A stretch of 64,000 nucleotides of DNA, from positions 4,211 through 68,210 of the forward strand of contig JALHQL010000002.1 of the NCBI GenBank assembly GCA_022841985.1. The letters are read 5' to 3'. The first letter of the stretch is position 1, and the number at the start of each line of letters is the position of its first letter. Shown piece after piece: positions 43 through 64,000 of the stretch. The stretch is from Minisyncoccota bacterium (GTDB taxonomy: Bacteria > Patescibacteriota > Minisyncoccia > Phycocordibacterales > Phycocordibacteraceae). Under the pieces are notes generated by a model. It ran no database searches, was not told the origin of the DNA, and saw only the letters and a list, made by a program, of their open reading frames with translations. A program made the position numbers and the translations under genes.

Positions 43-3000
43 ATGGCTGGCCTTTTCAAAAACCGAATAATTAGGGACAAACTTGAGAAGTTTGAGATTC
101 CTGATCTTGAGCAAAAGCTGGATATTGTGCGTGCCTGGCACAAAGCATCGCTAGACGGGTCATTGAAGGAGAAAACTGAAACTCAGTGTGAACAAGCATT
201 TAATTCAGATTTCTTCGTAAAAGTGCTTAGCTATGAACCGTTCCCAAACGAGGTCTATACGATCCAGCCAAAGGACAACGTTGAGACAGGTGGTGGTCAA
301 ATGCCCGACGCAACACTTGGCTACTTCACGGGAAAGCAGAAGCGCGTTGTTGCAGTCGTGGAAATTAAGGATGCGAATACATCGCTTGATAAATCGCAGC
401 ATCGCGAGGGTAACTTGAGCCCTATTCAGCAAGCGTTTAAGTATAAGCCGCAGTACAAAGATTGTGGCTTTGTCATTGCCACGAATTTCACTGAGATCCG
501 TCTGTTCCGAGATAATCAGTTGGACTACGAGAAATTTACTCTTGATGAGTTAGTAGACGCCAAGAATGATTACTTCCAGTTCAGGAAATTCCTCTTCCTA
601 CTGTCAGCACAGAATTTTGTAAACGAGCAAGGTCAGACTGAAACAGAGAAATTGCTTTCAGCAATTCGCGTTGAACAGGAAAAGATTACTGCGAAATTCT
701 ACAAAGAGTACAAGAAACTACGAGAGGACTTGATCAAAGACATTGTTGCAAACAACAAGAACATCAAACGCCCTGATTTCTATACACACATCGTTGAAAA
801 GGCGCAGAAGCTTGTAGATCGGACTGTCTTTATTTGTTTCTTTGAGGACTCTGGACTCTTACCTGAGGGGAGATTAGCAGAAGTTGTTGAGTATGCCCAA
901 AAAGGCGCTCTCAACGAGCCTATCTGGGAAACCATTAAGAAGTTTTTCAAAGCCGTTGATGAAGGAAGTGCGAAACTTGGGGTACCCGATGGTTACAATG
1001 GTGAACTTTTTAAACAAGATGAAGATCTGAATAAACTCATAATCAGCGATGAGATTTGTAAGAGTTTTGTTGACCTAACAAAGTTTGATTTTGAGGAGGA
1101 TCTTTCAGTGAATATTCTCGGCCATATTTTTGAGCAATCCATTACGGACTTGGAGAAACTTCGCGATTATTCGGAAAATGTAGAGACGGAAACAAAGAAA
1201 GATGAGAAGCGGAAGAAAGATGGAATATTTTATACGCCCGAATACATCGTTGACCACATAGTCCGAAATTCACTAGGACAGTATTTGCAGGAAAAGGAAC
1301 AAGAGGTTTTTAAAAAACATAAAGTAGATAGCAGACGAATTAAATCTGATGCCACACACGATAAACGCCTAGAGCAGGCATATACGGAGTATCAGATCAT
1401 CTTGCAGGACGTAAAAGTATTGGATCCAGCGTGTGGTTCTGGGGCGTTTCTGGTGAAGGTGTTTGACTTTCTTCTTGCTGAAAATAAGCGGGTTGCGGAT
1501 ATTCTTGCCGAAATTCAAGGAGCACAGAGCTTGTTAAGCACAGACGATTACGTGAAATCCCTGTTGCAAAATAATATATACGGCGTTGATCTCAACCCAG
1601 AAAGCGTGGAGATTACCAAGCTCTCACTTTGGTTTAAGTCAGCCAAGAAGGGACAGAAGTTAATCACCCTGAAAAATAACATCAAGTGTGGGAATAGCTT
1701 GATAGATGATGGAGGCATTACCGCCAGACCCTTTGATTGGAATAAGGAGTTTTCGGAAATTATGTCCAAAGGTGGATTTGATGTTGTGGTTGGAAATCCA
1801 CCATATGTTCAACTCAGCAAGGTAGTAGGTACCACGAAAGAACAGAAAGAATATCTGATCAGAACATACGGGACTTCTGGGGGACGTCTGAATACATTTA
1901 TTTTCTTTATTCACCTCGCCTCAGCATTAGTAAGGCAGGGTGGATACGTTGGCTTTATTGTTCCTAACACCCTTCTGACGCAACAATATTATTGGGAGAC
2001 GCGAAAACTGCTTTCAAGTGATTTGTCTCTTACGCAAATAGTCACCTACCCTTACTTACCATTTTCTGATGCTGTTGTTGAAAACATTACTTTTATTGCC
2101 GTAAAAGGCAAAACGGAAAATATTACGATCTATTCACAATTACCTGATGATCTTTCTGAACTTGCACAGATCAGCAATAGTTCTATCGGGAGAGATAAGA
2201 AATACATTATAGATATACGTAATAACCCAATTTGCCAAAGGATTGATAGCCTAAACTTTACTCCACTGAAAGATCTAGTGAATATAAATCAGGCAATCGC
2301 TCTAAAGGGGGATAAGAGTTTGAGCGTGAAAGATCATTACAGGGATGGTTATTTCAAATTGATTGATGGCAGGAATATAAATCGCTATTCACTAAACTGG
2401 TCAGGAGAATATCTAGAATACGACCTGAATCGTATCCACTCATGTAAAACAAAAGATATATTCTTACAACCAAAATTACTTTTCCGGAGAGTGTCTGCAG
2501 ATCTAATATTCACGTACGATTCCGAAGATTTTTTCGCCCTAAATACTCTTGTTGTTCTTACACCCAAGGAAGGTAAGACAGTGAATCTATTTGCTTTACT
2601 TGCGATTCTGAACTCAAAGCTTATCAACTACTACTACGTAAATAAATATAAGTCCACAAAGAAAGTGTTCTCAGAAATTCAAGCGCGCACAGTTGGACTT
2701 ATGCCAATTCCGGAATTGTCAGCAGCTGATACTCAGGCTCTTGGAGAGAAGGCAAGAAAGTTACTTGAGCTTAACAAAAGTCTTAACTCTGGTCTTGCTA
2801 AAAGCTTGGAACTATTCAGGCACGAGTTGAATATTGAAAAGCTTCCAAACAAAGCAAGTAATTTTGATTTACTCACATATGACACTTTCATCTCTTTGCT
2901 AGATACTGAGCTACCAATAAGTCGCAAGGCAGAGTTCATGGATTTTTTCAACAGTGAGAAAGCGAAATTGAGCGATGTCCGCGCCGAGATAAGAGATTTA

Positions 3001-3069
3001 GAGGAAAGTATTGATGAAAAGGTTTTCTATCTGTATTCAATCAGCGAAAAGGAAAAAGACATGCTATGA
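43..3069 (+). CDS. Type IIG restriction-modification enzyme, MmeI-like single polypeptide (N-terminal PD-(D/E)xK-type nuclease, gamma-class N6-adenine DNA methyltransferase, C-terminal target-recognition region)
   Basis: 1008-aa ORF; AdoMet motif LDPACGSGAFLV; catalytic motif VVGNPPYVQL; N-terminal MPDAT...VVAVVEIKD resembles a PD...ExK nuclease core; about 400 C-terminal residues have no recognised motif (likely TRD). Confidence 0.7.
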   Translation: MAGLFKNRIIRDKLEKFEIPDLEQKLDIVRAWHKASLDGSLKEKTETQCEQAFNSDFFVKVLSYEPFPNEVYTIQPKDNVETGGGQMPDATLGYFTGKQKRVVAVVEIKDANTSLDKSQHREGNLSPIQQAFKYKPQYKDCGFVIATNFTEIRLFRDNQLDYEKFTLDELVDAKNDYFQFRKFLFLLSAQNFVNEQGQTETEKLLSAIRVEQEKITAKFYKEYKKLREDLIKDIVANNKNIKRPDFYTHIVEKAQKLVDRTVFICFFEDSGLLPEGRLAEVVEYAQKGALNEPIWETIKKFFKAVDEGSAKLGVPDGYNGELFKQDEDLNKLIISDEICKSFVDLTKFDFEEDLSVNILGHIFEQSITDLEKLRDYSENVETETKKDEKRKKDGIFYTPEYIVDHIVRNSLGQYLQEKEQEVFKKHKVDSRRIKSDATHDKRLEQAYTEYQIILQDVKVLDPACGSGAFLVKVFDFLLAENKRVADILAEIQGAQSLLSTDDYVKSLLQNNIYGVDLNPESVEITKLSLWFKSAKKGQKLITLKNNIKCGNSLIDDGGITARPFDWNKEFSEIMSKGGFDVVVGNPPYVQLSKVVGTTKEQKEYLIRTYGTSGGRLNTFIFFIHLASALVRQGGYVGFIVPNTLLTQQYYWETRKLLSSDLSLTQIVTYPYLPFSDAVVENITFIAVKGKTENITIYSQLPDDLSELAQISNSSIGRDKKYIIDIRNNPICQRIDSLNFTPLKDLVNINQAIALKGDKSLSVKDHYRDGYFKLIDGRNINRYSLNWSGEYLEYDLNRIHSCKTKDIFLQPKLLFRRVSADLIFTYDSEDFFALNTLVVLTPKEGKTVNLFALLAILNSKLINYYYVNKYKSTKKVFSEIQARTVGLMPIPELSAADTQALGEKARKLLELNKSLNSGLAKSLELFRHELNIEKLPNKASNFDLLTYDTFISLLDTELPISRKAEFMDFFNSEKAKLSDVRAEIRDLEESIDEKVFYLYSISEKEKDML

Positions 3070-4571
3070 AAGCCATTATCTTCGCAAGAGTTTCCACACT
3101 GGAGCAAAGAGAGGCTGGCAATTCAATACCAGCACAAATAACTCGGCTCCAATCGTATTGCGACAGGAAGGGTTTTCAGGTCGTTGAGACGTATAGTTTT
3201 GACGAATCCGCCTATAAAACAAAACGCGACGAGTTTGATAAGTTCCTTGATTTAATCGGCAAAATGAAGGAAAAGGTTGCGGTTTGTTTTGACAAAGTAG
3301 ATCGTCTTTCACGAAATATATTTGATCCGAGAATTGCTTGGCTTTACGAAAAATCAACATCAGGAACGATTGAATTGCATTTTGTCTCTGATAACCAAGT
3401 CATCAATGACAATCTTTCGGCAGGAGAGAAGACTCATTTCGGTATAAACCTCGTGATGGCGAAAGCCTACTCAGATGCCATCAGCGACAACGTAAAACGC
3501 GCGTATGAGAAGATGCGCGCAAACGGTCAATGGACCGGAAAAGCGCCTATCGGGTATCTAAACCAAAAAGTGGATGAGAGAAAGAGCGTGGTCCCGGATC
3601 CGAAAACAGCTCACTTTGTTCGGAAAATTTTTGAAATGTATGCAAGTGGCAATGCTTCCGTAAAGATGATTCGTAATGAAATTGCTGAACTTGGCCTCAC
3701 TAGTTCCGTTGGAAAGCCACTGTCTGTAAGCATGATTGCTCACATACTTAATAATCCTTTCTACTACGGAGAGATGAGATCCAAGGGTGTGTTGTATCCG
3801 CACAAGTATGAACCGCTAATCTCAAAGCATTTGTACAACCAGTGCCAGATGGTTTTGAAAGGATGGCATACAAAACGAACCCAGTATGCCGCCAAGCCGT
3901 ACATTTTCAGAGGGCTATTGCCGTGTGCTAATTGTGGTTGCCTAATGAGTCCTGAGACGGCAAAGGGTAAATTTATTTACTACAGCTGCACCAATGCTAA
4001 GGGAATATGCAAACGGGTATACGTGCCTGAAAAGGTGCTCCTGAAGCCAATCCAGGAGGTCTTAGAGAGGTTCCAGCGGTTATCCCAAGAGGTCATAGAC
4101 GAGGTGGTGAATGGGATGAAGAAGGCCGGAGGTGATCAGGCTGAATTTCATAGAAAGGCTATCGCGGGCATGAGGGAAGAATACGATCAGATCCAGGCGA
4201 AGTTGGATCGGTATTTAGATCTTGTGGCTGATGGGCTCTTGAGCAAACAGGACTACGAGAAAAAAGTTGTTGCCATAAAGGATAGGCAGCAAGAAATCAA
4301 TTACAAACTGGAGGCCTATACCAAAGCCGATGAGACCTTCTACCTGACGGCTGGAAGGGTTTTGAGCTTGGCCAAAAGAGCCAAGGATATTTTTGATAGT
4401 TCTGAACCTGACGAAAAACGCGCCTTTCTCAACTACTTACTTCAGAACCCTAGGGTGGATGGCAAAAAACTCATATTTTCCTTGCGTTCTCCGTTCAATC
4501 ACATCCTAGAATTCTCCGACTGTTCTACTGGGCTCCGGGAGCAAGATTCGAACTTGCAACCAACGCCTTAA
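3066..4571 (+). CDS. large serine recombinase (integrase/transposase-type; resolvase catalytic domain, recombinase domain and Zn ribbon)
   Basis: N-terminus MKAIIFARVSTLEQ carries the catalytic Ser; Cys cluster CANCGC...YYSCTNAKGIC; start ATGA overlaps the RM gene stop (translational coupling); the 3' end of the ORF reads through tRNA-Asn, so the true C-terminus is uncertain. Confidence 0.8.
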   Translation: MKAIIFARVSTLEQREAGNSIPAQITRLQSYCDRKGFQVVETYSFDESAYKTKRDEFDKFLDLIGKMKEKVAVCFDKVDRLSRNIFDPRIAWLYEKSTSGTIELHFVSDNQVINDNLSAGEKTHFGINLVMAKAYSDAISDNVKRAYEKMRANGQWTGKAPIGYLNQKVDERKSVVPDPKTAHFVRKIFEMYASGNASVKMIRNEIAELGLTSSVGKPLSVSMIAHILNNPFYYGEMRSKGVLYPHKYEPLISKHLYNQCQMVLKGWHTKRTQYAAKPYIFRGLLPCANCGCLMSPETAKGKFIYYSCTNAKGICKRVYVPEKVLLKPIQEVLERFQRLSQEVIDEVVNGMKKAGGDQAEFHRKAIAGMREEYDQIQAKLDRYLDLVADGLLSKQDYEKKVVAIKDRQQEINYKLEAYTKADETFYLTAGRVLSLAKRAKDIFDSSEPDEKRAFLNYLLQNPRVDGKKLIFSLRSPFNHILEFSDCSTGLREQDSNLQPTP

Positions 4572-4604
4572 CAGGGCGCTGCTCTACCGTTGAGCTATCC
4601 CGGA
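4529..4604 (-). tRNA. tRNA-Asn (anticodon GTT), CCA encoded
   Basis: Minus-strand sequence TCCGGGATAGCTCAACGGTAGAGCAGCGCCCTGTTAAGGCG...GCAAGTTCGAATCTTGC TCCCGGA G CCA: 7-bp acceptor stem TCCGGGA/TCCCGGA, T-loop TTCGAAT, anticodon loop CTGTTAA. Confidence 0.85.
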
Positions 4605-4704
4605 ATATGTACTGTCACCCTCCAAGCGGAGAGCTTATGGGCATTCTAGCTTAAACACCCTTCATCGCAAAGCCTATAGGTAACAGGTACGAGGTATACT
4701 TTTC

Positions 4705-5519: not shown

Positions 5520-6872
5520 TTATTTCGAAAACTCCACGTACGACATCTCCTTCTTACCTTCGGGTATCACACGCTCGATGATGAATTGACCGTCTTTAAT
5601 TGAGGCTTGAGTTATCTTTATGCGCTTTCCGTTTTCAAAAAAATAAGTGCCAATAGTATCGGCGTACGCACGGTATTTATTCCAATTCACTTCCGCTGGA
5701 GCATCCAGTGAGAGGAGGCCGTCCTCTTTCTTTAGTTTGCGTGCCCGAGTTGCAAGCGATGAATCTTGCGGAATCGGTATGACATCGCCGCGCAAATATG
5801 CAGACAGCGTATCAACAAGTAGAGAAGCGCCCATCCCGATAAGCCGCGGGCGCAGCTCGCGCGCGGTCTCACTGGGTCCAATTTTTGTCGATTCCTGAGC
5901 GATAATGTCTCCTGCGTCCAATTCTTTCACCATCTTCTGTATGCTTACGCCAGTTCTATCATCTCCAGCAAGCAATGCAGCTTCAAGAGGTGTTGCTCCG
6001 CGATGCTTCGGCAAAAGCGAGTAGTGGACATTGAAGACTCCTTTGGGAAAAACGCTAATAAGTGTCTCGGGAAATATTTTGCCATACGCGACGACGAGAG
6101 CGTAATCGCATTTATATTTTTGAATCATGGCGATTGTTTCGGCATCAAGCTTTTCCGGAGTTACGACGGGAATATCATGCGCAAGTGCAAATGTTTTTGT
6201 TTCGGACGGCGTGAGAGTCAAACCACGACCTCTCGGCGCATCTGGAGAGGTCACGACGAGATCTGGCACGAGGCCATGCTCGATAAGAATCGCGAGCGTA
6301 TCGCTTGAGACTTTCGGTGTTCCGAAATAAACGAAATTATGTTCTGACCCGTGATGGATGCGAGCAAGATTCTTAGCATGATCGATGAAAAGGATTCCAT
6401 TTAAGTGGTCTATTTCGTGTTCAAATATTTGCGCCATAAGACCGCCGGCGCCGCGCTCCACATGAGAACCGTTCGGTCGGCGCGCTTTAATGGTGGCGCG
6501 TTCGTGACGGTGAGTAATGCCGTAGATACCGCGAACTGAAAGACATCCCTCATCGGTCTTTGCGCGTTTGCGAGAAGTCTTTACGATTTCTGGATTGATA
6601 TACACCTCAATCTCAGGCGCTAGGGGAGGAGGGGGTACACCCTTTGCAATTTTCTTCTGGAAAGGAGATGTCCTGTCTTTTCTCACAATAAAGAGACGAT
6701 ATGAAACTCCTATTTGCGGCGCAGCGAGCGCCACTCCCTCAGGTTCTTTATCGAGAGCCTCTTCCATATCTTTGATAAGACGCGTGAGTTCGGGCGTACC
6801 GAAAAGCCCTTCAGGTACGGGTTGGGCGATCTCTCGAAGCACTGGGGTACCATCTTGCACAATCTCTTTCAT
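5520..6872 (-). CDS. def/fmt: fused peptide deformylase (N-terminal) and methionyl-tRNA formyltransferase (C-terminal)
   Basis: N-terminal 175 aa carry Def motifs GVALAAPQIG, EGCLS, HEIDHL; C-terminal 275 aa carry the Fmt formyltransferase core (HYSLLPKHRGATPLEAALLAGDDRTGVSIQKM) and a C-terminal tRNA-binding-like domain; single 450-aa frame without stop. Confidence 0.8.
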   Translation of the reverse strand: MKEIVQDGTPVLREIAQPVPEGLFGTPELTRLIKDMEEALDKEPEGVALAAPQIGVSYRLFIVRKDRTSPFQKKIAKGVPPPPLAPEIEVYINPEIVKTSRKRAKTDEGCLSVRGIYGITHRHERATIKARRPNGSHVERGAGGLMAQIFEHEIDHLNGILFIDHAKNLARIHHGSEHNFVYFGTPKVSSDTLAILIEHGLVPDLVVTSPDAPRGRGLTLTPSETKTFALAHDIPVVTPEKLDAETIAMIQKYKCDYALVVAYGKIFPETLISVFPKGVFNVHYSLLPKHRGATPLEAALLAGDDRTGVSIQKMVKELDAGDIIAQESTKIGPSETARELRPRLIGMGASLLVDTLSAYLRGDVIPIPQDSSLATRARKLKKEDGLLSLDAPAEVNWNKYRAYADTIGTYFFENGKRIKITQASIKDGQFIIERVIPEGKKEMSYVEFSK

Positions 6873-32178: not shown

Positions 32179-33432
32179 ATGACTCTTGCTGACGAATTGA
32201 AAGCGCGTGGACTTATTGAGCACTCTTCCGCTACTCCTGAAGAAATATTTTCTTCACCACGCACAGTATATGTAGGCGCTGATCCTACCGCAGACTCTCT
32301 CCACGTCGGCCACCTCGCATTAGTACTTTTCATGAAGCGTCTTGGTGATGCAGGAAACAAACTCATCTTTCTTGTTGGCGGTGGCACCGGCCAGATCGGT
32401 GACCCGAAAGAAAAGGGGGAGCGACCCATGCTTACAGAGGAAACTGTAGATACTAATACCCGAGCACTTAAATCCCAGTTAAAAAAACTGCTCGGCGAAA
32501 CTTCTTTTACCATGGTCGACAATGCTGATTGGCTTATGCAAGTAAAACTTGTCCCATTCCTTCGCGACATAGGAAAGCACTTCACCGTAAATGACCTGAC
32601 CAAGCGTGACATCATAAAAAAGCGTCTCGACACGCCAGACGAGAGTATCTCGTATACAGAATTTTCGTACTCTCTGCTGCAAGGCTTTGATTATTTAACC
32701 TTGCATCAGAAGCATGGAGCTGATCTTCAGATCGGCGGGTCGGACCAGTGGACCAACATCCTTTCAGGCGTCGACCTTATTCGAAAGAAAGAGGGTAAAC
32801 AAGTATTTGCTATCGGCATGCCGCTTGTAACCGATGCTTCGGGAAAGAAATTCGGCAAGAGCGAGGGCAATGCCGTATGGCTTGATCCAGAAAAGACTTC
32901 GCCATTTCAGTTCTATCAGTTCTGGATACATCTCCCGGATGAAGGACTTGAGACCTATCTTAAAGCCTATACATTTCTCCCGCTTAACGAAATCGACTCG
33001 CTCATGGAAAAACATCGTCAGAATCCTGGAGATCGAGAGGCGCAGGAAACACTCGCCCGACTTGTGACCGAGATAGTGCATGGACCAGCCGCCACAGCAC
33101 AGGCTGCTGCCACAACTGACGCACTCTTCGGTGATACCCCATTTACCGAGCTCTCGCGCGACGCACTCGCGGTGGCGCTAGCAGAAGCGCCCTCAGTCAC
33201 TCTTGGAGCAAACGACCTTGATGGCGGATATTCTCTTGCCGAAGCACTTGTCGCAGGAGGCCTTGCGACTTCAAAATCAGAAGCTCGCCGTCTTATAGAA
33301 GGGAAGGGTATCACACTCTCAGGACAAACTATCGAAAACCCCGATCAGAAAATTTTCCCGGGTGACCTATCACACGGCTTTGCGCTTATACGAAAAGGAA
33401 AGAGAGGAGTGCTCATTTTGGTTCTGAAATAA
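32179..33432 (+). CDS. tyrS: tyrosyl-tRNA synthetase
   Basis: HIGH-type LHVGHL, KMSKS-type KFGKS, C-terminal S4-like domain. Confidence 0.9.
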   Translation: MTLADELKARGLIEHSSATPEEIFSSPRTVYVGADPTADSLHVGHLALVLFMKRLGDAGNKLIFLVGGGTGQIGDPKEKGERPMLTEETVDTNTRALKSQLKKLLGETSFTMVDNADWLMQVKLVPFLRDIGKHFTVNDLTKRDIIKKRLDTPDESISYTEFSYSLLQGFDYLTLHQKHGADLQIGGSDQWTNILSGVDLIRKKEGKQVFAIGMPLVTDASGKKFGKSEGNAVWLDPEKTSPFQFYQFWIHLPDEGLETYLKAYTFLPLNEIDSLMEKHRQNPGDREAQETLARLVTEIVHGPAATAQAAATTDALFGDTPFTELSRDALAVALAEAPSVTLGANDLDGGYSLAEALVAGGLATSKSEARRLIEGKGITLSGQTIENPDQKIFPGDLSHGFALIRKGKRGVLILVLK

Positions 33433-33801: not shown

Positions 33802-33829
33802 TTGAAATAAAGCCCAAATCCGCTATAGT
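33802..33829 (+). promoter_or_regulatory. sigma70-like promoter for tRNA-Tyr (TTGAAA -16- TATAGT)
   Basis: TTGAAA 33802..33807, TATAGT 33824..33829, 9 nt before the tRNA 5' end. Confidence 0.4.
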
Positions 33830-33838
33830 GACTCTATT

Positions 33839-33922
33839 GCGTCGGTGGCGGAGTGGTCAATCGCAACAGGCTGTAAACCTGTCGGACATAGTCCTACGGA
33901 GGTTCGAATCCTCCCCGACGCA
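33839..33922 (+). tRNA. tRNA-Tyr (anticodon GTA), long variable arm, CCA not encoded
   Basis: GCGTCGG...CAGG CTGTAAA CCTG, long variable arm TCGGACATAGTCCTAC, T-arm GGAGGTTCGAATCCTCC, acceptor 3' strand CCGACGC + A. Confidence 0.85.
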
Positions 33923-33950
33923 CTTAAAATTTCTGTGGTATCGTAGTCAC

Positions 33951-34910
33951 ATGTTCAACTCAAAACCAGTTCTTGTCTCCGGTATAAAGCCAACTGGAGA
34001 TCTTCATATCGGTAATTATTTTGGCGCGATGCGTCAATTCGTGGAACTCACGAGGACAGGGAAATATCAACCATTTATTTTTATTGCTGATTACCATGCG
34101 CTGAACACAATGCAAGACGCAGAGGAAATGCGCCGACGGACCCGCGAGCTCGTAATGGCATATCTTGCAATCGGCCTTGATCCGAAAGAAGTTGTTTTTT
34201 TCAAACAATCAGACGTGCCAGCGCACACCGAGCTCTGCTGGATCTTCGACACCATCACGACGATGCCATACCTCATGCGCGCACATGCCTACAAAGACGC
34301 CGAAGTGAAAAATAAAGAAATAACTATCGGGACGTTCAATTACCCGATGCTAATGGCAGCTGACATCCTGCTCTACGATGCAGCAATTGTGCCGGTAGGA
34401 CAAGACCAGAAACAGCATATCGAGTATGCACGCGATACTGCCGAGAAATTCAACCGCATATATAAAACAGACATTTTGAAACTCCCCGAGCCATACATCA
34501 TGCCGGGAGTTGCGGTCGTCCCTGGTATTGACGGACAAAAGATGAGCAAAAGCTACGGAAACGTCATTCCGCTTTTTGCTTCACACGATGAGCTCGCAAA
34601 ATGTGTCATGAACATTGTTACCGACTCTTCTGGTGACCGCCCGGAAAATGTATACCAGATACATCGGCTCGTTCGAAGCGAAGCAGAGCTTGCGCCACTC
34701 TACGAAGAACATCGCGGCAAATATAAAATACTCAAAGAGCTCCTTATTGAGGACCTCGACCGATATCTTGCCCCGATGCGCGCACAGTATGAAGAACTGC
34801 AGAAAGACCCGGGTATCGTGGACGACATTCTTGCAAAAGGGAAGAATACCGCACGTGCAATAAGCGAAATAAAAATGGAGCAGGTGCGCACAACGATCGG
34901 CGTCGCATAA
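33951..34910 (+). CDS. trpS: tryptophanyl-tRNA synthetase
   Basis: GIKPTGDLHIGNY, KMSKSYGN; the ORF-track start at 33828 runs through tRNA-Tyr, so the true start is ATG at 33951. Confidence 0.9.
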   Translation: MFNSKPVLVSGIKPTGDLHIGNYFGAMRQFVELTRTGKYQPFIFIADYHALNTMQDAEEMRRRTRELVMAYLAIGLDPKEVVFFKQSDVPAHTELCWIFDTITTMPYLMRAHAYKDAEVKNKEITIGTFNYPMLMAADILLYDAAIVPVGQDQKQHIEYARDTAEKFNRIYKTDILKLPEPYIMPGVAVVPGIDGQKMSKSYGNVIPLFASHDELAKCVMNIVTDSSGDRPENVYQIHRLVRSEAELAPLYEEHRGKYKILKELLIEDLDRYLAPMRAQYEELQKDPGIVDDILAKGKNTARAISEIKMEQVRTTIGVA

Positions 34911-55903: not shown

Positions 55904-56296
55904 TTAACGATAGGCATTGGTCGTGGTAGCAACATTTGAAGAACCTACCGAGAGTGGAGCGACGTTAATGACCCTGTTCGAAGTTGGACTATAGAGAAAT
56001 GCTTTTTGCGCATTTGTGAAGATAAGTACTTTATCGCCAGCCTTCGCGTTGACGAAGAATTCCTGATCTTTTAATTTCTCCGGATTGGAGACAGTTGCGA
56101 CCGTTGGCGTCTCGCCTTCAGGGAGCAGAATGAGCTTCCCCACAGACGCCATAAGCGATACTACTTCTTCCTGTCCGATAGGTGGACGATTCGGTGCGAG
56201 CACTGCCGCCTGATGATAAAAATAATATGCAGTAGCGCCCATACCAATGAGAAGCCCGAATAAAATTATCGGTAGATATTTTTTAAAATCTATCAT
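55904..56296 (-). CDS. hypothetical membrane-anchored protein
   Basis: N-terminal TM PIILFGLLIGMGATAYYFY; start taken at MIDFKK (56296). Confidence 0.4.
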   Translation of the reverse strand: MIDFKKYLPIILFGLLIGMGATAYYFYHQAAVLAPNRPPIGQEEVVSLMASVGKLILLPEGETPTVATVSNPEKLKDQEFFVNAKAGDKVLIFTNAQKAFLYSPTSNRVINVAPLSVGSSNVATTTNAYR

Positions 56297-56325
56297 GCCA
56301 GTGTAATGCCACATATCATACCACG

Positions 56326-57360: not shown

Positions 57361-58092
57361 TTATGAACCAATATGGAATGGACGAACATGTAAGTCTAAT
57401 ATAGGGCGCACATCTTTCATTGGAAAATTTCTGTTTCCAAAAGCGATTGGGGAAACTGGAGAGCTCGTACAGCCGCCCGGTGAAGCATGACTGTAAAACG
57501 CTACGTCAGTAGGATCTTTAGGAATGGTTTTATCTAGAGTATAGAGAGATTCTGCGGATTGATAAACGTTGGTAGAAGCATAGAATGCGGTAGCCTCTGA
57601 TAGTCCTTGGCCGTGATAGGCTTGACCGCTGCAATCAGAGCTTTCAAAATATATTGGACTTTGAGTAGATACGCCAAGGTGGGGTCCAAAGCTCCCGTTA
57701 ACACTTACAGCTACAATAACCCCTAGATTCTTTTCAAGAATTTCAAAACTATCTGGAAAGGGCGCAGTACTAGTTATGTATCCAATCACTTGATCATTTG
57801 CATCGTACAGTTTGGCACCACTACCCTCAGGACCCTGAGGGCCGATAGGCCCTTGAATTCCCTGTGGGCCTTGAGGACCTTCAATATTAAACGTGACAAG
57901 TTGCTCATTTGAACTGCACGCCTGTTTGGCGAAACCAGTACCAATGATATACGAGACCCCGGATTGCTTTACGCACATGCTAATTTCTGTACCGGCTGCG
58001 TGCGAAAATGACCAGGCACTCAAGCTCAGTACTGCTGTGACTATCGCCAGCACTATAACTTGTGTCTGATTGATAGAAATATTTTTGAACAT
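57361..58092 (-). CDS. secreted protein with collagen-like Gly-X-Y repeat segment
   Basis: signal peptide; GPQGPQGIQGPIGPQGPEG (six consecutive GXY triplets). Confidence 0.5.
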   Translation of the reverse strand: MFKNISINQTQVIVLAIVTAVLSLSAWSFSHAAGTEISMCVKQSGVSYIIGTGFAKQACSSNEQLVTFNIEGPQGPQGIQGPIGPQGPEGSGAKLYDANDQVIGYITSTAPFPDSFEILEKNLGVIVAVSVNGSFGPHLGVSTQSPIYFESSDCSGQAYHGQGLSEATAFYASTNVYQSAESLYTLDKTIPKDPTDVAFYSHASPGGCTSSPVSPIAFGNRNFPMKDVRPILDLHVRPFHIGS

Positions 58093-58145: not shown

Positions 58146-61100
58146 CTATGGATTGGCCGGGGACGCTTCTGTCGGAGGAGGAATCGGTTCTGGAGTTATT
58201 TCTGGTGTCGGGACTACAGTCGGCTCTGGGCTTGTCGGAGGAGAAGTTGGTTCGGGCGTCGGTTCGAGTGTAGTCGGGGTCACTGAAGATTCTAAGGTGG
58301 GGATAGGAGTCACCGTAGGTTCTGGAGTTGGTGTCGGTTCTGGTGTAGGCGTTACTACGGACGATGTCGTTGTGGAAATATTGACTGGAGTTGGTTCGGG
58401 CGTAGGCTCAGGTGTCGGTGTCAGTTCTGGTGGTGTCGGTTCTGGTGTAGGCGTTACTACGGACGATGTTGTTGTAGCGGTCGGAGAAAGAGTTGGTTCC
58501 GGTGACATGCTTGTCGCGACTGGCGGTGGCGGAATATCTGTTGCGACTGGTGCGACGACTTGATCGAGTGAGAGAGGTACCTCTTCAGAATTAAATGTCT
58601 TTGCTCCTTTCACTGCGAGCGCCATCCAGCTGAATTGAATATCGGCAGTCGCGGGTTTATTGATAAGCACGGTGAAGCCCTTCGTGCTCTTGTCAGTAAT
58701 AAGATAGCGAACATCATCAGCAAATATGGCTTCAGCGGCAGCAGAGGTCAGTGCAGTATTGGTAGCTGTATCAAGAGAAATAGAGGTATGTACGATCGGC
58801 TGCTCAAGATATTCTCGATCGAAGGTGACGCTTACTTTCCTACTTCCCTTCTTCACCACCGCAAATCCGGCAGTATCGGTAGTGAAGTATGGCCGACCGA
58901 TGAACACTGCATCCCCGCCGACGAAGAGATTCCCAGAGGAATCAAACGACGCGACTGGCGTGGACGACGCATCCGTACTGGTATTGAATAGTGCAAATTG
59001 CGTCCCAGTCGCAAGATTGAGTGAGATACCAGCGGCAGAGACCGCCGCAATATTACTCACGGTTAGTGTGTCACTGGTCAACTGCGGTGTAATTATTTCA
59101 AACGCTGAACTTATACGGTCAGTGAAGATTTCCGAGCTCACCTCACGATTTGCTCGTGTCTCTTTGAGGTTCTTCAAAAACGCGAGGATATTGGACCTGC
59201 GCATGGCGGCCTGGTTATCTTGCGTGAGCGGTATATTCGCTATCGCAAGTCCTTCGGCAGAAAGGTCCGTCGTCGATGCTGCCAAAGTAGAAGGAAGTGC
59301 GTCAATTGAGAACCCTGCTTCTTGCATCACAACACTGATAGATTCCCCACTGTAGTCAACGAGATTTACAAACACCATCACCGTTCCGCACTTTGTCGTT
59401 GGGAGACTTCCCATACCCTCTACAGGACAAGCCGTCGCAGCGCTCTCATTGAAGTCTTCAAGCGCTTTACCCAGCACACGACCAGCCTGGGTCGCACGCA
59501 TGGCATATCCGGAAATAGAAGCGGAGGTGAGAACATCGCCCGCTCTTATAGAGCCGTTCTCGTTACTTACCTTCACCGGCACACGCCCGATAAGACCGAT
59601 TGGGTAGGAATTTTCCGTATACGCACCCGCGATAAAGCCCGGCTCGGTCGATACCACGCCGAGAACATTGCGCTGATACTGACCGGTCGCTTTTATGACT
59701 CCTTGTGGCGTATTTGGATCAATCATCACCACCTCGCCAGGCATGAGGACTTGAGTGGATGTGTAATTTTCTGCCAAGTCGGCGCCGCCGCTGTAGAAAC
59801 CACCGTTCGCCGCAGCATAGATGTTCCCGTCTGAGCTCACACGCATCATGTTACGACCATTGCTCTGAAGATTGAGGAGGTCTTGGCCATTATTCAATGC
59901 GAACTGGAAGACCGTCGGCGTGCTGACTGTCTTATACGGATAGACCATGCCGGCGCCGCTGTTTACCACGCCGTCGTTCACTTGCCACGATGACGGGAAG
60001 TCACGGCGGAAGTTGATTTTCACCTGTGCCCATGTCTCACCGCCTGTGTTGAAAATACTGCTTGAAGGTTTGCCGATAGTGGACCAGCTGGTGGTTGCCA
60101 AGTTCGCCTGGGAGGTGCCGACGCGTGCTGCCATCGAGACATAATTATCAGCCGATTGTTTCCAACTAAGCATCGCATTTGCCGCAAGCGCCGGCACGGC
60201 AATTTGTTCAGAGGTGTACTGGCCATCCGGATACCAGCCGGCGTCATAAATCATAACGCTGTTGGTACCGTTACCCGCGATGATGACGAACTTGCCGTCA
60301 GGGCGCTGGAAGGCAACCGCTCCTGGACCTATACCGGTTGGCAAAACTGGGCCAACTACAGTGATTCCGAGTTGACTTACACCGGAAGCTGCGGACGCCG
60401 CTGGTCCTGTGCCCGCAGGAATAATAATGTTCGTCGTTACAGCATTAGTTCCATTATTTCCGTTCAATTGTAAGAACGTGCCGTCTGGTCTTGGGATGAT
60501 GAGTCCTCCTCTACCGGCATTGTTTGTTAGTCCTGGTGCGCCAATTGAGCTTGCTCCGCTATCGGGATTGATGATGTTGGTGGTAAGTTGATTTGCTCCG
60601 GCAATAATTTCCCAGAACCCATCCGCTCTCTGGAACGAATACGCGCCGCATCCCGGGAGGGTAGTTGTGAGTGGAGCACCCTGCGAGAACATCTTAGACC
60701 TCGGATTATAATTGAATGTGGTTGTCGTACCGACACCGCCATCTTGAGCGCCAGGAAGAAACTTGTATATGCCGTTTCTAAGTGGGATTGCTAGAGAGCC
60801 GCAGTTGACACGTGCTGGTTGGTTACCTGGACCTGGCAGGTTAAATGGGATGTCCGGACCAGAAAGCATGGTCATACCTGCCACATCGCGCACTGGATCA
60901 TAGATAGAAGTCTTTATTCCTGAAATCGATAAGACAGTCGATGACGCTGTGCCATGCACGATGGTATACGTGCCATCGGTGTTTGGGATCGACAAGGCTC
61001 CGGCTCCGGCATTTCCAGAGAGGTTTGGTCCGTTCGTGAAGATGTTTGAGACAGGGTCATAAATATTGGTTTTATTGGATACAGCGGCAGTGGTACTACC

Positions 61101-64000
61101 CATGACGATGAGGAATTTACCGTCGGGAAGTTTGAGTGCAAAGCCGCCGAGACCATTTGCAACAGTCGGAGCATTACTTCCCGACTGCTTCGAAAACGTC
61201 TGCGTATTTGGGTCATAGAGAGTGGCATTCACCGAAGGTGTGGAACTCGATACGAGAATCACGAAGGTCTTGTTCGGGCGTGCAATGACTATCGTACTTG
61301 AGGTCGCATGCACCACTGGAAGATTAGCGTGCGCTGTTGAGAAGTTCCCGAGGTAATAAGGAAGGGTTAATGCGGCGGTAGTGAGCGGAGTCGTGGTACC
61401 TGTGAGACGTCCGAGCGGGAGGTAGACACGATCGGAGAGTGTTTCAGCTTTGTTCAGAACCGGACCGGAGCTATCGGTCTGCGGGGCAGCGGAATTTGCA
61501 CTCGGCAAATTGAAAGCGAAGTTGTCGCGTCGAAGAAAGGCTGAATTATCTACAACCAGTTCAAACAAGCTCGGTGAGAAATATTCGAGCGGAACCATCG
61601 TCGACGAGTCCTTTTCAGAGAAAACTCCGCGGTCATAGATAGATTTTTTCGGCACCGGACGCGTGAAGTTCACCGTAATCTGCAGACAATTGTCAGTCGT
61701 ACCTGCGGGACGAATAACGTCGCCTGAGTTAAGAATTTCTCGATCAGTTGCTCCGGAGAGCGCGGCTATCGTACATGATCCGGCATCCGCAGCGTTCACC
61801 GAGCGGACAAGGAACTGCAAACTTGACGTGGCGTTCTGACTGCCTGCCATGTCTTTTTGGATATCAGCGCCCCACCGGAGTACCGATGAGGCATTAAGTG
61901 CGGTCGAGTATATGGCTTCTGTTTTATATTGTGACCCTGTGCCGTTCATCACAAGACCGGTGCTGAAATTGTTTGCGGTAGTACCACCACCGCCAGTGAG
62001 TATCTGCCATGAGCCATCGGTGCGCAGGATAGAAAGTGCGCCTGTGCCTATATTGTTAGTGTTCGTGCCGGCAAAGAAGAGGTCGCTGTTTGGATTATAG
62101 ATATATGTATTGGGATTACCGCCGCCGACAAGAATAAGGTACGTCCCATTTTGCATCGGAATGGCATGCGCTCCGACACCAAGTGCCGTCGCAGGACCAT
62201 TGCTGGTTCGACAGGTGAAGATATTCGCGATGGGATCATACAGCGATGAGGCATTCGCCTTTGAGAGCACCACGTACTTCCCGTCTGGACGTTTGAGCGC
62301 GACCGAACCAAGACCGTTTATTTCACAACCTGTACCAAGATCTGGGCCGTTGATAAATGAACCGGTGGAAGTCGCCATATAAAGTGAGGTGGTGGCTACG
62401 TTCACTCCGCCCGCGACAAAAAGTGCTGCAAAGCCAGTGGTGCTCGATGCTACAGGAATGACGAGTGCTCCTTGCCCCGACGTGGTGGCGACCGGCCCTA
62501 GTTGGAAAGTATCTGTTATTGGGTTATAGAGCTGGGTGGCATTCGTGCCGTTACCGTTTGTGAATATATAGGTGCCGTCTGGCCGCAAGAAAGAGACAGT
62601 GCCGGTGGCGACTGCCGTCACCGCGACGCTTGCACCGACGGCGAAATAACCCGACGGATCGACCAGAGAAGTGGTGGTGAGACCGCCACCGTGAACGACG
62701 CGATACTGTCCGCCAGGGCGAGGGAACGCTAGTGAGCCTCCGGCCACGACACCAATCATCGTTGAAGTGGTCGCAGTGAAGGTACCTCCCGTGCTACTTG
62801 CCGTGTTTGAGTCATAGAATTGAATGACGTTTGTACCGCCACCGTTAATAATCATGTACCTCCCGTTCGCTGCTGCAAGAGCGATTGCTCCGGTACTGAT
62901 AGCCGACCCGGCTGCCGTCTGACCGCCGGTGGTGACAGTGCCGGAGCCGTTATTTGGCACAGTACCCTCCGATTGTCTCAATTGGCCATTCGCATTTGTG
63001 AGCTTGTCCCCCACCGTACCGAGCGCGAATTCGGCAGTCGTGTTTCTGACGATATTGCTATCTGCGCCATTGATTGTGAGCGCACCATTATTTGCAACAC
63101 TAAATTTATCTACCCCGCCCTGCTGAAGAGTAAGAAGTCCTCCGGCGCCACGCTGGTCGATAATTGCAGCTGCGATGACCGCCGAAGTACTTGAGGCAGT
63201 CAGCGTCGCCATCGGAGAAGAACTGCCGACACCGAGACGACTATTTGTCTTGTCCCACGTAAAGTTGGTAACGGCATCAAGCGCATTGCCCGTATTGAAC
63301 TGTATATTCCCCGTACTTCCTGCCGCGGTTGCGGCTCCAGCATTGACGGTGCATTCTGTTTGTCCGGTACCGTTTATACAGTTTATTCCGGTGCCGAGGA
63401 AAGCGAGAGTTGAAACTTGCGTGAGCGTTCCTTGCGTATCGTCGGTTATTGTCGAGTACCCACCGCCGCCTGCAGACGAGGTAGCTACAAACGCGAGACC
63501 CCCTGTCACATTTGACCACCCGAGTACTTGTCCACCTGTACCGACACCATAGAGACTTGAAGTCGCCATAGGTGCAGTATTTCCTGTTGCAGCATTGCCA
63601 AGAACACCTGCAGCTTGTGACCCATACGACGTGGTATTGCCAGAGGAGGTGATGACACCACTGAGGTTTGCATTCGTCGTGACGGTGCCGGCATTGCCAG
63701 AGATGCTCATGTTCTGGGTGTTTGTCCACGTATTGGTGTCAGCAAGAAGTGTGGTGGAAGCAACCACGATATTTGCCGAACCGTTGAAGGAGACACCGTT
63801 GATAGTGCGAGCGGTTTGGAGTGTGGTGGCGGTGCCTGCATTGCCACCGATGGAAAGAGAGGAGGTAGCGACTTCAACAAGTGCACTGCCGGCACTGTTG
63901 GTATAGAGGAGTCGATTGCCGGTGATGGATGAGAGGCCGGTGCCGCCGTTTGCAATAGCGACAATACCCGTGACATTTCCTGCGGTACCGCCGATGTTGA
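58146..64000 (-). CDS. giant surface protein (more than 1950 aa, N-terminus beyond the window): propeller-like repeat array, conserved central domain, Pro/Thr-rich C-terminal tail
   Basis: the ORF-track M at 63767 is an internal GTG; the frame stays open to 64000; about 12 repeats of the pattern RPDG-Y-I-GGG-IYNP-F; C-terminal (PTPE)n tail. Confidence 0.7.
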   Translation of the reverse strand, partial: NIGGTAGNVTGIVAIANGGTGLSSITGNRLLYTNSAGSALVEVATSSLSIGGNAGTATTLQTARTINGVSFNGSANIVVASTTLLADTNTWTNTQNMSISGNAGTVTTNANLSGVITSSGNTTSYGSQAAGVLGNAATGNTAPMATSSLYGVGTGGQVLGWSNVTGGLAFVATSSAGGGGYSTITDDTQGTLTQVSTLAFLGTGINCINGTGQTECTVNAGAATAAGSTGNIQFNTGNALDAVTNFTWDKTNSRLGVGSSSPMATLTASSTSAVIAAAIIDQRGAGGLLTLQQGGVDKFSVANNGALTINGADSNIVRNTTAEFALGTVGDKLTNANGQLRQSEGTVPNNGSGTVTTGGQTAAGSAISTGAIALAAANGRYMIINGGGTNVIQFYDSNTASSTGGTFTATTSTMIGVVAGGSLAFPRPGGQYRVVHGGGLTTTSLVDPSGYFAVGASVAVTAVATGTVSFLRPDGTYIFTNGNGTNATQLYNPITDTFQLGPVATTSGQGALVIPVASSTTGFAALFVAGGVNVATTSLYMATSTGSFINGPDLGTGCEINGLGSVALKRPDGKYVVLSKANASSLYDPIANIFTCRTSNGPATALGVGAHAIPMQNGTYLILVGGGNPNTYIYNPNSDLFFAGTNTNNIGTGALSILRTDGSWQILTGGGGTTANNFSTGLVMNGTGSQYKTEAIYSTALNASSVLRWGADIQKDMAGSQNATSSLQFLVRSVNAADAGSCTIAALSGATDREILNSGDVIRPAGTTDNCLQITVNFTRPVPKKSIYDRGVFSEKDSSTMVPLEYFSPSLFELVVDNSAFLRRDNFAFNLPSANSAAPQTDSSGPVLNKAETLSDRVYLPLGRLTGTTTPLTTAALTLPYYLGNFSTAHANLPVVHATSSTIVIARPNKTFVILVSSSTPSVNATLYDPNTQTFSKQSGSNAPTVANGLGGFALKLPDGKFLIVMGSTTAAVSNKTNIYDPVSNIFTNGPNLSGNAGAGALSIPNTDGTYTIVHGTASSTVLSISGIKTSIYDPVRDVAGMTMLSGPDIPFNLPGPGNQPARVNCGSLAIPLRNGIYKFLPGAQDGGVGTTTTFNYNPRSKMFSQGAPLTTTLPGCGAYSFQRADGFWEIIAGANQLTTNIINPDSGASSIGAPGLTNNAGRGGLIIPRPDGTFLQLNGNNGTNAVTTNIIIPAGTGPAASAASGVSQLGITVVGPVLPTGIGPGAVAFQRPDGKFVIIAGNGTNSVMIYDAGWYPDGQYTSEQIAVPALAANAMLSWKQSADNYVSMAARVGTSQANLATTSWSTIGKPSSSIFNTGGETWAQVKINFRRDFPSSWQVNDGVVNSGAGMVYPYKTVSTPTVFQFALNNGQDLLNLQSNGRNMMRVSSDGNIYAAANGGFYSGGADLAENYTSTQVLMPGEVVMIDPNTPQGVIKATGQYQRNVLGVVSTEPGFIAGAYTENSYPIGLIGRVPVKVSNENGSIRAGDVLTSASISGYAMRATQAGRVLGKALEDFNESAATACPVEGMGSLPTTKCGTVMVFVNLVDYSGESISVVMQEAGFSIDALPSTLAASTTDLSAEGLAIANIPLTQDNQAAMRRSNILAFLKNLKETRANREVSSEIFTDRISSAFEIITPQLTSDTLTVSNIAAVSAAGISLNLATGTQFALFNTSTDASSTPVASFDSSGNLFVGGDAVFIGRPYFTTDTAGFAVVKKGSRKVSVTFDREYLEQPIVHTSISLDTATNTALTSAAAEAIFADDVRYLITDKSTKGFTVLINKPATADIQFSWMALAVKGAKTFNSEEVPLSLDQVVAPVATDIPPPPVATSMSPEPTLSPTATTTSSVVTPTPEPTPPELTPTPEPTPEPTPVNISTTTSSVVTPTPEPTPTPEPTVTPIPTLESSVTPTTLEPTPEPTSPPTSPEPTVVPTPEITPEPIPPPTEASPANP
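58330..58475. repeat. two 44-bp near-identical direct repeats (43/44), 102 bp apart, inside the Pro/Thr-rich tail-coding region
   Basis: GGTGTCGGTTCTGGTGTAGGCGTTACTACGGACGATGT(C/T)GTTGT at 58330..58373 and 58432..58475. Confidence 0.8.

Follow-up and report, generated by a model that had tools for sequence, protein, structure and literature searches.

A giant, probable surface protein of a Patescibacteria genome with a candidate phage-type autochaperone domain in its interior

Introduction

How do the ultrasmall bacteria of the Patescibacteria, or candidate phyla radiation (CPR), recognize a host cell and hold on to it? To our knowledge this is largely unknown, and work on CPR attachment to date has focused on type IV pili. 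The question is raised by a gene at the end of a 64-kb stretch of a Minisyncoccota genome (contig JALHQL010000002.1; hereafter, the window, meaning the whole 64,000 nucleotides analyzed), which encodes a giant protein cut by the window edge. What is this protein, and how might it be assembled on the cell? We argue that it is probably a Sec-exported and likely trimeric surface fiber or adhesin of the Patescibacteria cell, assembled by a phage-type autochaperone such as that of gp12, the pre-neck appendage (tailspike) of Bacillus phage phi29, and possibly cleaved between residues A1406 and D1407 of its central domain.

Parts of this proposal build on what is known. Kelch propellers, the gp12 autochaperone, and H-type lectin folds have all been described, and giant membrane proteins with a presumed role in host attachment are enriched in CPR genomes (PMC8080830). 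New here are the specific cassette of domains, the internal placement of the autochaperone-like domain, its very wide spread in the Patescibacteria, and its lack of annotation.

Results

A single giant gene cut by the window edge

The gene lies on the minus strand and is one open frame of 1,950 sense codons (58146–63998), the sole stop codon of which is at 58146–58148. Amino acids (aa) are numbered from the first in-frame codon in the window. The original prediction held that the frame is open from 58146 to the window edge, which is correct, although the end coordinate that it gave, 64000, is 2 nt off frame. It also took the GTG at 63767 to be internal and the N-terminus to lie outside the window, and both points are borne out because the frame stays open for 77 further codons, the residues of which align with homologs (e.g., P0007, '...GGTASNITGIVALLNGGTGLSSITGNRLLYTNSAG...') as far as the first residue in the window. 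The complete protein is probably 2,500–3,000 aa long, of which the window holds the C-terminal 1,950 aa. Sixteen homologs of 1.8–3.0 kaa align colinearly over 51–94% of the query (mostly 76–94%) at 34–59% identity; this is therefore one gene and not several smaller ones, an alternative that the original prediction had named as its possible refutation.

A second such refutation, a repeat region produced by assembly collapse, was rejected for all but the tail of the protein. At the DNA level, the 64 kb contain a single repeat, two 45-nt copies (58329 and 58431; 98% identical) that both lie inside the Pro/Thr-rich tail, and the repeat search of the window found none linking the propeller blades, so collapse is no issue outside the tail; the length of the tail itself could be mis-assembled.

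The overall description in the original prediction also stands: the protein is giant, rich in repeats, and probably extracellular, and it combines two beta-propellers with a conserved central domain and a Pro/Thr tail. From N- to C-terminus the modules are tail-fiber repeats, two successive propeller-plus-sandwich units, the central domain, a helical linker, an H-type-lectin-like sandwich, and the Pro/Thr tail. Searches of NCBIfam and PDB sequences with the whole protein returned no match.

The central domain resembles the phi29 gp12 autochaperone

The central domain (aa 1403–1545; 59364..59792, minus strand) contains a highly conserved block, GEVVMIDP...GRVPVKV...GYAMRA, the conservation of which had been noted in the original prediction together with the statement that it could not be named. 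We can now propose a name: a domain of the beta-tulip type, homologous to the C-terminal D4 autochaperone of phi29 gp12 (Peptidase_G2-like; PF11962, MEROPS G2; PDB 3gqh, 3gqk, and 3suc). To this fold the family adds an extension with two invariant Cys residues, which, if disulfide-bonded, would fit an extracellular location. In gp12, the D4 domains form beta-tulips around the trimer axis and constitute an autochaperone needed for trimerization, and homology of D4 to 'some bacterial adhesion proteins' was noted by Rossmann's group (bioRxiv 10.1101/216911).

The central domain has the beta-tulip-type fold of the gp12 C-terminal fragment, and sequence profiles lead to the same protein. When a 23-sequence profile (A1) was searched against PDB sequences, the top match was 3gqh_A, the gp12 C-terminal fragment (E-value 0.052), and the invariant D-L-A-E of the family aligned with residue 1 of this chain, which starts DFAEYF. 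PF11962 ('Peptidase_G2, IMC autoproteolytic cleavage domain') gave weak matches in 12 of the 23 relatives (best E-value 3.3e-4). In an hhalign comparison with full-length gp12 (from EU771092), A1406-D1407-L-A-E1410 fell on S691-D692-F-A-E695 (E-value 1.9e-4, probability 48%). We take S691/D692 to be the gp12 cleavage site and E695 to be part of its motif, which agrees with the start of 3gqh_A at DFAEYF and with the account of gp12 in bioRxiv 10.1101/216911. According to Xiang et al. in 2009, gp12 reportedly cleaves itself between S691 and D692 after trimerization, D4 release being ATP-dependent, and the same authors are said to have proposed that bacterial adhesins may mature like gp12.

By this alignment and the conservation of the motif, the window protein has a putative self-cleavage site, A-D-L-A-E (aa 1406–1410; 59769..59783, minus strand), with the acidic D-x-x-E motif directly after the predicted scissile bond, A1406/D1407. 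The stretch GGFYSGGADLAENYTSTQ spans this bond; a cleaved product would start DLAENY, and the semi-tryptic peptide predicted for the cut is DLAENYTSTQVLMPGEVVMIDPNTPQGVIK. In a domain-architecture sample of 180 proteins with 338 copies of the domain, the D, A, and E of D-x-A-E are kept in 319, 322, and 319 of the 328 ungapped copies, respectively (97–98%), and the residue before the motif Asp varies among Y, F, A, and S. Two copies are present in 151 of the 180 proteins, with the motif retained in both. Weak matches of 5_nucleotid_C to the central domain were sub-threshold and lacked structural support, and we discarded them.

A large family in Patescibacteria, with terminal relatives in viruses

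The original prediction had the central block recurring in large phage-fiber-like or surface proteins. It does so on a large scale: among 1.84 billion representatives, the A1 profile finds 29,135 clusters at an E-value of 1e-3 or below, and 24,223 at 1e-10 or below, in proteins of 485 to 6814 aa. The family has no entry in Pfam or NCBIfam, and each named member looked up bears the annotation 'hypothetical protein'. In the architecture sample, a C-terminal beta-sandwich follows the last tulip in all 88 proteins in which a profile detected the sandwich. In the remaining 92 proteins the tulip is followed by at least about 180 aa, except in three that continue for 1–50 aa (one or more of these three stop within the domain), and by eye their ends resemble the same '...GF.V...F.W...' sandwich.

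All relatives with an informative name or title belong to the Patescibacteria/CPR, in line with the type of organism originally suggested. Informatively named homologs are Parcubacteria or Minisyncoccia; in ten further clusters, the named members come from Woesebacteria, Uhrbacteria, or 'Patescibacteria group' and are all annotated 'hypothetical protein'; and a scan of one genome per GTDB species with a profile from a closer alignment (A4) gave 80 loci, among which the informative titles name Nomura-, Pacei-, Levy-, Moran-, Kaiser-, and Peribacteria and similar groups. Several automatically labeled third-party annotation records, on contigs up to 0.6–0.9 Mb, are titled 'Gammaproteobacteria' or 'Bdellovibrionales', labels that we take to be wrong.

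Viral relatives carry the domain in a different position. Only 1 of 50,697 isolate-phage records matches, that of the Sinorhizobium jumbo phage Phosso (PV764938.1, 193144–193527; 33.8% identity, from the ADLAE position), within an unannotated 'hypothetical protein'. IMG/VR contains 58 matching loci (L084–L141; e.g., L110 2862–5372 and L115 2166–4505) that are 33–43% identical to aa 1406–1520 and mostly start at query residue 22, the A/DLAE position, with [YF]-A-D-L-A-E. In these open reading frames (ORFs) the stop codon comes 10–17 aa (median 14) after the match, so that the domain forms the last ~125–135 aa, and neither lectin domain nor tail follows, unlike in the window protein. The C-termini of the four ORFs scanned match PHROG 19602 'tail fiber protein', PHROG 22593, and PHROG 6427, and PHROG 22593 also matches the window protein (aa 1406–1500). 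The domain is thus terminal in viruses, the classical place of an intramolecular chaperone, and internal in Patescibacteria. A terminal arrangement that begins at A/DLAE is as expected of a C-terminal chaperone that is cleaved off, and the IMG/VR proteins look like an uncharacterized class of C-terminal tail-fiber chaperone that stands between phi29 gp12 D4 and the domain of CPR bacteria.

Downstream of the central domain: linker, lectin-like sandwich, and tail

The central domain is followed by a variable linker (aa 1546–1700; 58899..59363, minus strand) with one long predicted helix (about aa 1593–1618, residues 209–234 of AlphaFold2 model m4451fad5c71e); elsewhere in the linker the predicted local distance difference test score (pLDDT) is below 50, and it is 5–360 aa long across relatives. 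Next comes the last folded domain, a confidently modeled, H-type-lectin-like beta-sandwich (aa 1701–1812; 58563..58898, minus strand; pLDDT 85–95) with FIGRPYFTTDTAGFAVVKKG at its start and KGFTVLINKP...FSWMALAV at its end. Its fold matches include SLL-2 (3wmp), Helix pomatia agglutinin (2ccv), and the discoidins, the H-type lectin fold being that of the discoidin C-terminal domain, and also the lectin-like C-terminal domains, or feet, of R-type pyocin fibers and several tailspikes. Unlike these lectins, the window protein has no match to Pfam H_lectin (PF09458) at an E-value of 1 or below, and its lectin-like domain is followed by a tail.

This tail (aa 1813–1950 plus stop; 58146..58562, minus strand) is of low complexity, as originally predicted: its 138 aa are 32% Pro and 25% Thr (57% together) and 10% Glu. 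Neither an LPXTG motif nor a hydrophobic segment at the terminus is present. The closest ortholog (L004 74–8797, contig CAYNRJ010000001.1), which is 78% identical in the central domain, has in place of the Pro/Thr tail an acidic linker and an extra stretch of about 90 aa ('PPQVTVIGESPVRIEIGTGYSDQGA...') that looks Ig-like by eye, so that close relatives differ in their C-terminal appendage. A more distant relative, P0029, carries PF16403.

Two Kelch-type propellers with their sandwiches

The region before the central domain consists of two similar units. The first comprises a seven-bladed Kelch-type beta-propeller (aa 367–684; 61947..62900, minus strand) and a beta-sandwich (about aa 690–820) that passes into a low-confidence linker (aa 690–895 in all; 61314..61931, minus strand); the second comprises another seven-bladed Kelch-type propeller (aa 903–1262; 60213..61292, minus strand) and a sandwich with the motifs Y.SEQI..P.L.A...L.W ... 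INFRRDFP (aa 1263–1385; 59844..60212, minus strand), which are conserved in alignment A3. A self-built blade hidden Markov model finds 14 blades of ~45–50 aa, seven in each propeller; the original prediction was right about the repeats and the two propellers, and its count of about 12 was too low. The two units align colinearly by BLAST over 505 columns (E-value 4e-14), which indicates an internal duplication.

Structure prediction, which had been suggested as a check on the repeat array, agrees with this picture. The AlphaFold2 model of aa 290–1390 has a mean pLDDT of 74, with the blades mostly at 80–90 and ~27–28 strands per propeller. Its best PDB matches by Foldseek are galactose oxidases (E-values 5e-12 to 1e-10); other top fold matches are the two-propeller sensor BT4663, DDB1, and designed Kelch propellers. 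Pfam Kelch_6 stays below threshold (21.7 bits against a cut-off of 25.3; best stretch aa 959–993, in propeller 2). A hit to Pfam Glyco_hydro_30C (E-value 1.1e-5, aa 1227–1247) was rejected as spurious, as it covers 21 of 65 model positions and falls on a propeller blade strand. Three homologs (P0005, P0008, and P0016) carry inserted repeats, '...GG.CT.G.H.W.VTFVT..GES......ARKIYRT.AG...L...I.DN.TT...D...D..LG', that are absent from the window protein; they sit between or after the propeller units, in several copies in P0008.

A tail-fiber-like shaft and, in homologs, a signal for export

The N-terminal part of the protein in the window resembles the shaft of a phage tail fiber (aa 1–330; 63009..63998, minus strand) and contains the motifs ANGGTGLSSITGN and TATTLQTARTINGVSFNGSANI. 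A match to PHROG 1833 'tail fiber protein' covers aa 48–127 (E-value 3.8e-5). By BLAST, the repeats 'GNAGTVTTNANLSGVITSSGNTTSYGSQ...' and 'TATTLQTARTINGVSFNGSANI' are common to P0017 and to proteins that end in a Peptidase_S74 chaperone, such as P0025, and the repeat 'TARTINGVSFNGSANI' is common to the window protein, P0025, and other proteins. The tail-fiber-like motif reported at the window edge is thus backed by the PHROG match and by the repeats common to Peptidase_S74 proteins. Coverage in our alignment suggests that the shaft may be more variable among orthologs than the rest of the protein.

Peptidase_S74 (PF13884), known from endosialidases, tail fibers, and eukaryotic MYRF, works on the same concept as gp12 D4, in that a C-terminal module trimerizes the fiber and then cuts itself, but has an unrelated fold and a Ser-Lys dyad. 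It has no match in the window protein, and we found it only in distant relatives with the same N-terminal repeats.

Six full-length homologs (P0005, P0006, P0008, P0009, P0015, and P0016) begin with a hydrophobic, cleavable signal peptide that ends in an AXA-type site, and they would therefore have no N-terminal membrane anchor. Directly after the signal peptide, all six have a conserved domain of ~110 aa ('INFQGKL...W.E...V.V..G.F.V.LG...TPR....PYA.NA'); these proteins are covered by no Pfam model. The closest ortholog, L004, also begins at a contig edge, with no recognizable start. Another homolog, P0002 (L002 5013–6001, contig CAZLQL010000005.1), looks N-terminally complete but is cut by a scaffold gap of 100 N, with the frame open on both sides; the lengths and 'start' residues of several database homologs are therefore unreliable.

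A chromosomal neighborhood

To place the gene, ~50 larger ORFs of the window were scanned against Pfam. They encode RecR, DnaB, CysS, CorA, an S41 peptidase, AlaRS, DnaK, a Def-Fmt fusion, M16 peptidases, MreB, RRF, an RseP-type M50 peptidase, ribosomal proteins S13 and S4, RpoA, DnaJ, TyrRS, TrpRS, AsnRS/AspRS, ScpA, ScpB, a PBP5-type carboxypeptidase, MraY, FtsW, MurG, and GluRS. The window is thus core chromosome of a peptidoglycan-making bacterium, and the giant gene sits among housekeeping genes.

Two small genes lie near the giant gene on the same strand. One encodes a 136-aa membrane protein (55904..56314, minus strand) without a Pfam match that is 37–47% identical (E-values 1e-22 to 1e-30) to small genes directly downstream of homologous giant genes (L002 11993–13262, three tandem copies; L003 11785–12279), and it may be a conserved partner of the giant gene. 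Proteins of this group are 136–165 aa long, with one transmembrane helix and a domain, '...LLP..E.PT.ATV...FF..A..GD..L......KA.LY.P...V..VAP', that belongs to no Pfam family. The other, directly downstream of the giant gene (57361–58092, minus strand), codes for a protein of 243 aa that has a signal or transmembrane segment at its N-terminus and a short collagen-like run, GPQGPQGIQGPIGPQGPEG, of six G-X-Y triplets. This run suggests that it could be another trimer-forming secreted protein; it has no match in Pfam and no exact match in the protein collection. Exact look-ups of both downstream proteins came back empty.

Three further loci were noted in passing. A single 450-aa ORF (5520–6872, minus strand) joins peptide deformylase (aa 1–169) to methionyl-tRNA formyltransferase (aa 205–428), an apparent Def-Fmt fusion. 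At 43–4605, a 1008-aa restriction-modification enzyme of the Eco57I/MmeI type and a 501-aa large serine recombinase border directly on a tRNA-Asn (4529–4605), with a GC content of 0.40–0.42 compared with 0.47–0.52 over most of the remaining window; this segment is probably an integrated mobile element. An ORF with a class Ib tRNA synthetase domain (33828–34910, plus strand), probably TrpRS, comes right after TyrRS (32179–33432), and as listed it overlaps tRNA-Tyr (33839–33923), so its real start is further downstream.

Discussion

A proposed trimeric fiber with an internal autochaperone

Every module of the protein that has a characterized relative has it in a trimeric receptor-binding protein or a lectin, and we therefore read the protein as a homotrimeric surface fiber. 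On this reading, the chain would be exported by Sec, as the cleavable AXA-type signal peptides of the full-length homologs imply. The beta-tulip domain would then act as an intramolecular chaperone that brings three chains into register, as its homology to gp12 D4 suggests; we propose trimerization because the tail-fiber repeats, D4, and H-type lectins are trimeric in their characterized relatives. Next, the domain would probably cut the chain at A1406/D1407 by means of the conserved Asp and Glu of D-x-A-E. Cleavage is proposed because of the position and conservation of D-x-A-E and because of the terminal arrangement in the viral relatives, and on this sequence evidence we put it at about even chances. 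Finally, the two propeller-plus-sandwich units per chain and the H-type-lectin-like domain would be ligand-binding heads, probably for glycans judging from their fold types, that contact a host or partner cell or the envelope of the cell itself. The lectin-like domain and Pro/Thr tail could form either a wall-binding foot, comparable to Gram-positive wall-spanning regions, or a distal receptor-binding tip, comparable to that of pyocin fibers.

A role in attachment or host interaction is plausible by analogy with other CPR bacteria. The giant surface proteins of Vampirococcus lugosii are comparable: they are secreted or membrane-associated, have many interaction domains, and have been proposed to attach to the host. 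WD40, PKD, integrin, and fibronectin domains were described in them, and a cassette of gp12-type and H-lectin domains is absent from that description (PMC8080830).

Set beside gp12, the window protein differs in several ways, some of which weigh against the reading given above. The window gene is cellular and chromosomal, and its product is presumably Sec-exported. The signal in sequence is weak: the hhalign probability is that given above, the window protein itself has no PF11962 match even at E-values up to 10, its similarity staying below the Pfam threshold, and the residue preceding the predicted cut is Ala where gp12 has Ser; homology to D4 is thus supported mainly by structure, here a predicted one. 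Other structural positions, G-R-x-P and G-D, are as conserved as D-x-A-E, and the conservation of the motif is therefore no proof of catalysis. The domain is terminal in gp12 and in the viral relatives, but here ~400 aa follow it (helical linker, lectin-like domain, and tail), including a well-conserved folded domain, which is unexpected for a chaperone that is simply discarded, and the closest ortholog has yet another stretch downstream, Ig-like by eye. In gp12 a beta-helix precedes the domain, whereas propellers and sandwiches precede it here, and no interdigitated beta-helix is present that would obviously need registration. Release of gp12 D4 reportedly requires ATP, which is absent outside the cell, and this step has no obvious equivalent. 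No cell-anchoring element was seen in the window.

Alternative explanations

Some of these points are accommodated by an alternative in which the beta-tulip domain does not cleave at all, but is a permanent trimerization or knob module, like the beta-tulip decoration and cement proteins of capsids, so that the lectin-like domain stays covalently attached as a distal or wall-binding tip. The internal position of the domain in cellular proteins, and the conserved domains downstream of it, fit such a module. It would leave unaccounted for that D-x-A-E, which is 97% conserved, coincides exactly with the gp12 cleavage site, that in the viral relatives bearing the motif a terminal domain of ~115 aa begins with it, and that proteins with two copies of the domain keep the motif in both; we regard a non-cleaving module as possible but doubtful. 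Much less probable still is that the gene belongs to a phage, a prophage, or a tailocin rather than to the cell surface. Its tail-fiber repeats, gp12-type domain, and C-terminal fold like that of pyocin fibers and tailspikes, and the related domains on viral contigs, could all be so explained, but the flanking 58 kb hold housekeeping and cell-wall genes, with RecR, DnaB, CysS, and CorA as neighbors, and the ~50 ORFs scanned include no phage structural gene (sequence upstream of the gene is beyond the window edge). Moreover, its homologs have Sec signal peptides, the viral versions are only 33–43% identical and of a different, terminal architecture, and isolate phages yielded a single match.

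The two remaining alternatives concern function, and we consider both very improbable. That the propeller units are copper-radical enzymes of the galactose oxidase/glyoxal oxidase type (AA5), and the protein a surface oxidase, is suggested by the best PDB fold matches of the model: each unit has the fold and the domain order of galactose oxidase and GlxA (Foldseek E-value about 1e-11), a seven-bladed Kelch propeller and then a beta-sandwich. Identity to galactose oxidases is only 10–12%, however, no Pfam glyoxal oxidase family matches, and, unlike in those enzymes, the unit occurs twice in tandem within a fiber protein. We found no conserved copper-radical residues: the positions invariant across 17 homologs comprise Gly, Pro, Arg, Asp, and aromatic residues of the blades, together with a single His inside a blade motif, and the propeller region has no invariant Cys, although the Cys-Tyr cofactor and the Tyr/His copper ligands would need one. 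Ligand binding is the most likely role of the propellers, more so than catalysis. The original prediction had also suggested a diversity-generating retroelement (DGR), with the protein as its possible variable target. The general literature describes DGR targets as common among the surface proteins of CPR bacteria, but nothing specific in the window points to one, and for this window the suggestion does not survive: as the prediction itself observed, no reverse transcriptase is seen, now among the ~50 ORFs scanned; no template/variable repeat pair, nor any repeat pair of at least 40 nt, exists in the 64 kb outside the Pro/Thr tail; fold searches returned no C-type-lectin fold; and the C-terminal domains are conserved between orthologs, not hypervariable.

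Implications for Patescibacteria

We return to the reading of the protein as a trimeric surface fiber with a phage-type autochaperone. It would tie the common denominator of a very large unannotated family to a well-studied phage mechanism, autochaperoning of the gp12 type with self-cleavage, and the profile of the D-x-A-E domain offers a search handle for candidate adhesins across CPR genomes. The family would be a further example of receptor-binding modules common to phages and cells, terminal in viruses and internal in cells. More tentatively, and as a broader idea to which we give the lesser part of our belief, the cassette of one or more gp12-type D-x-A-E tulips, an H-lectin-like sandwich, and a low-complexity tail may be a Patescibacteria-specific, self-processing module for assembly and display, within a superfamily of trimeric fibers that resemble phage receptor-binding proteins. 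If this is true, CPR cells would carry a cellular counterpart of phage tail spikes, in tens of thousands of clusters, in which the terminal chaperone of phages would have become an internal site of cleavage or a hinge, leaving a lectin-bearing fragment with a function of its own, in wall anchoring or in host binding.

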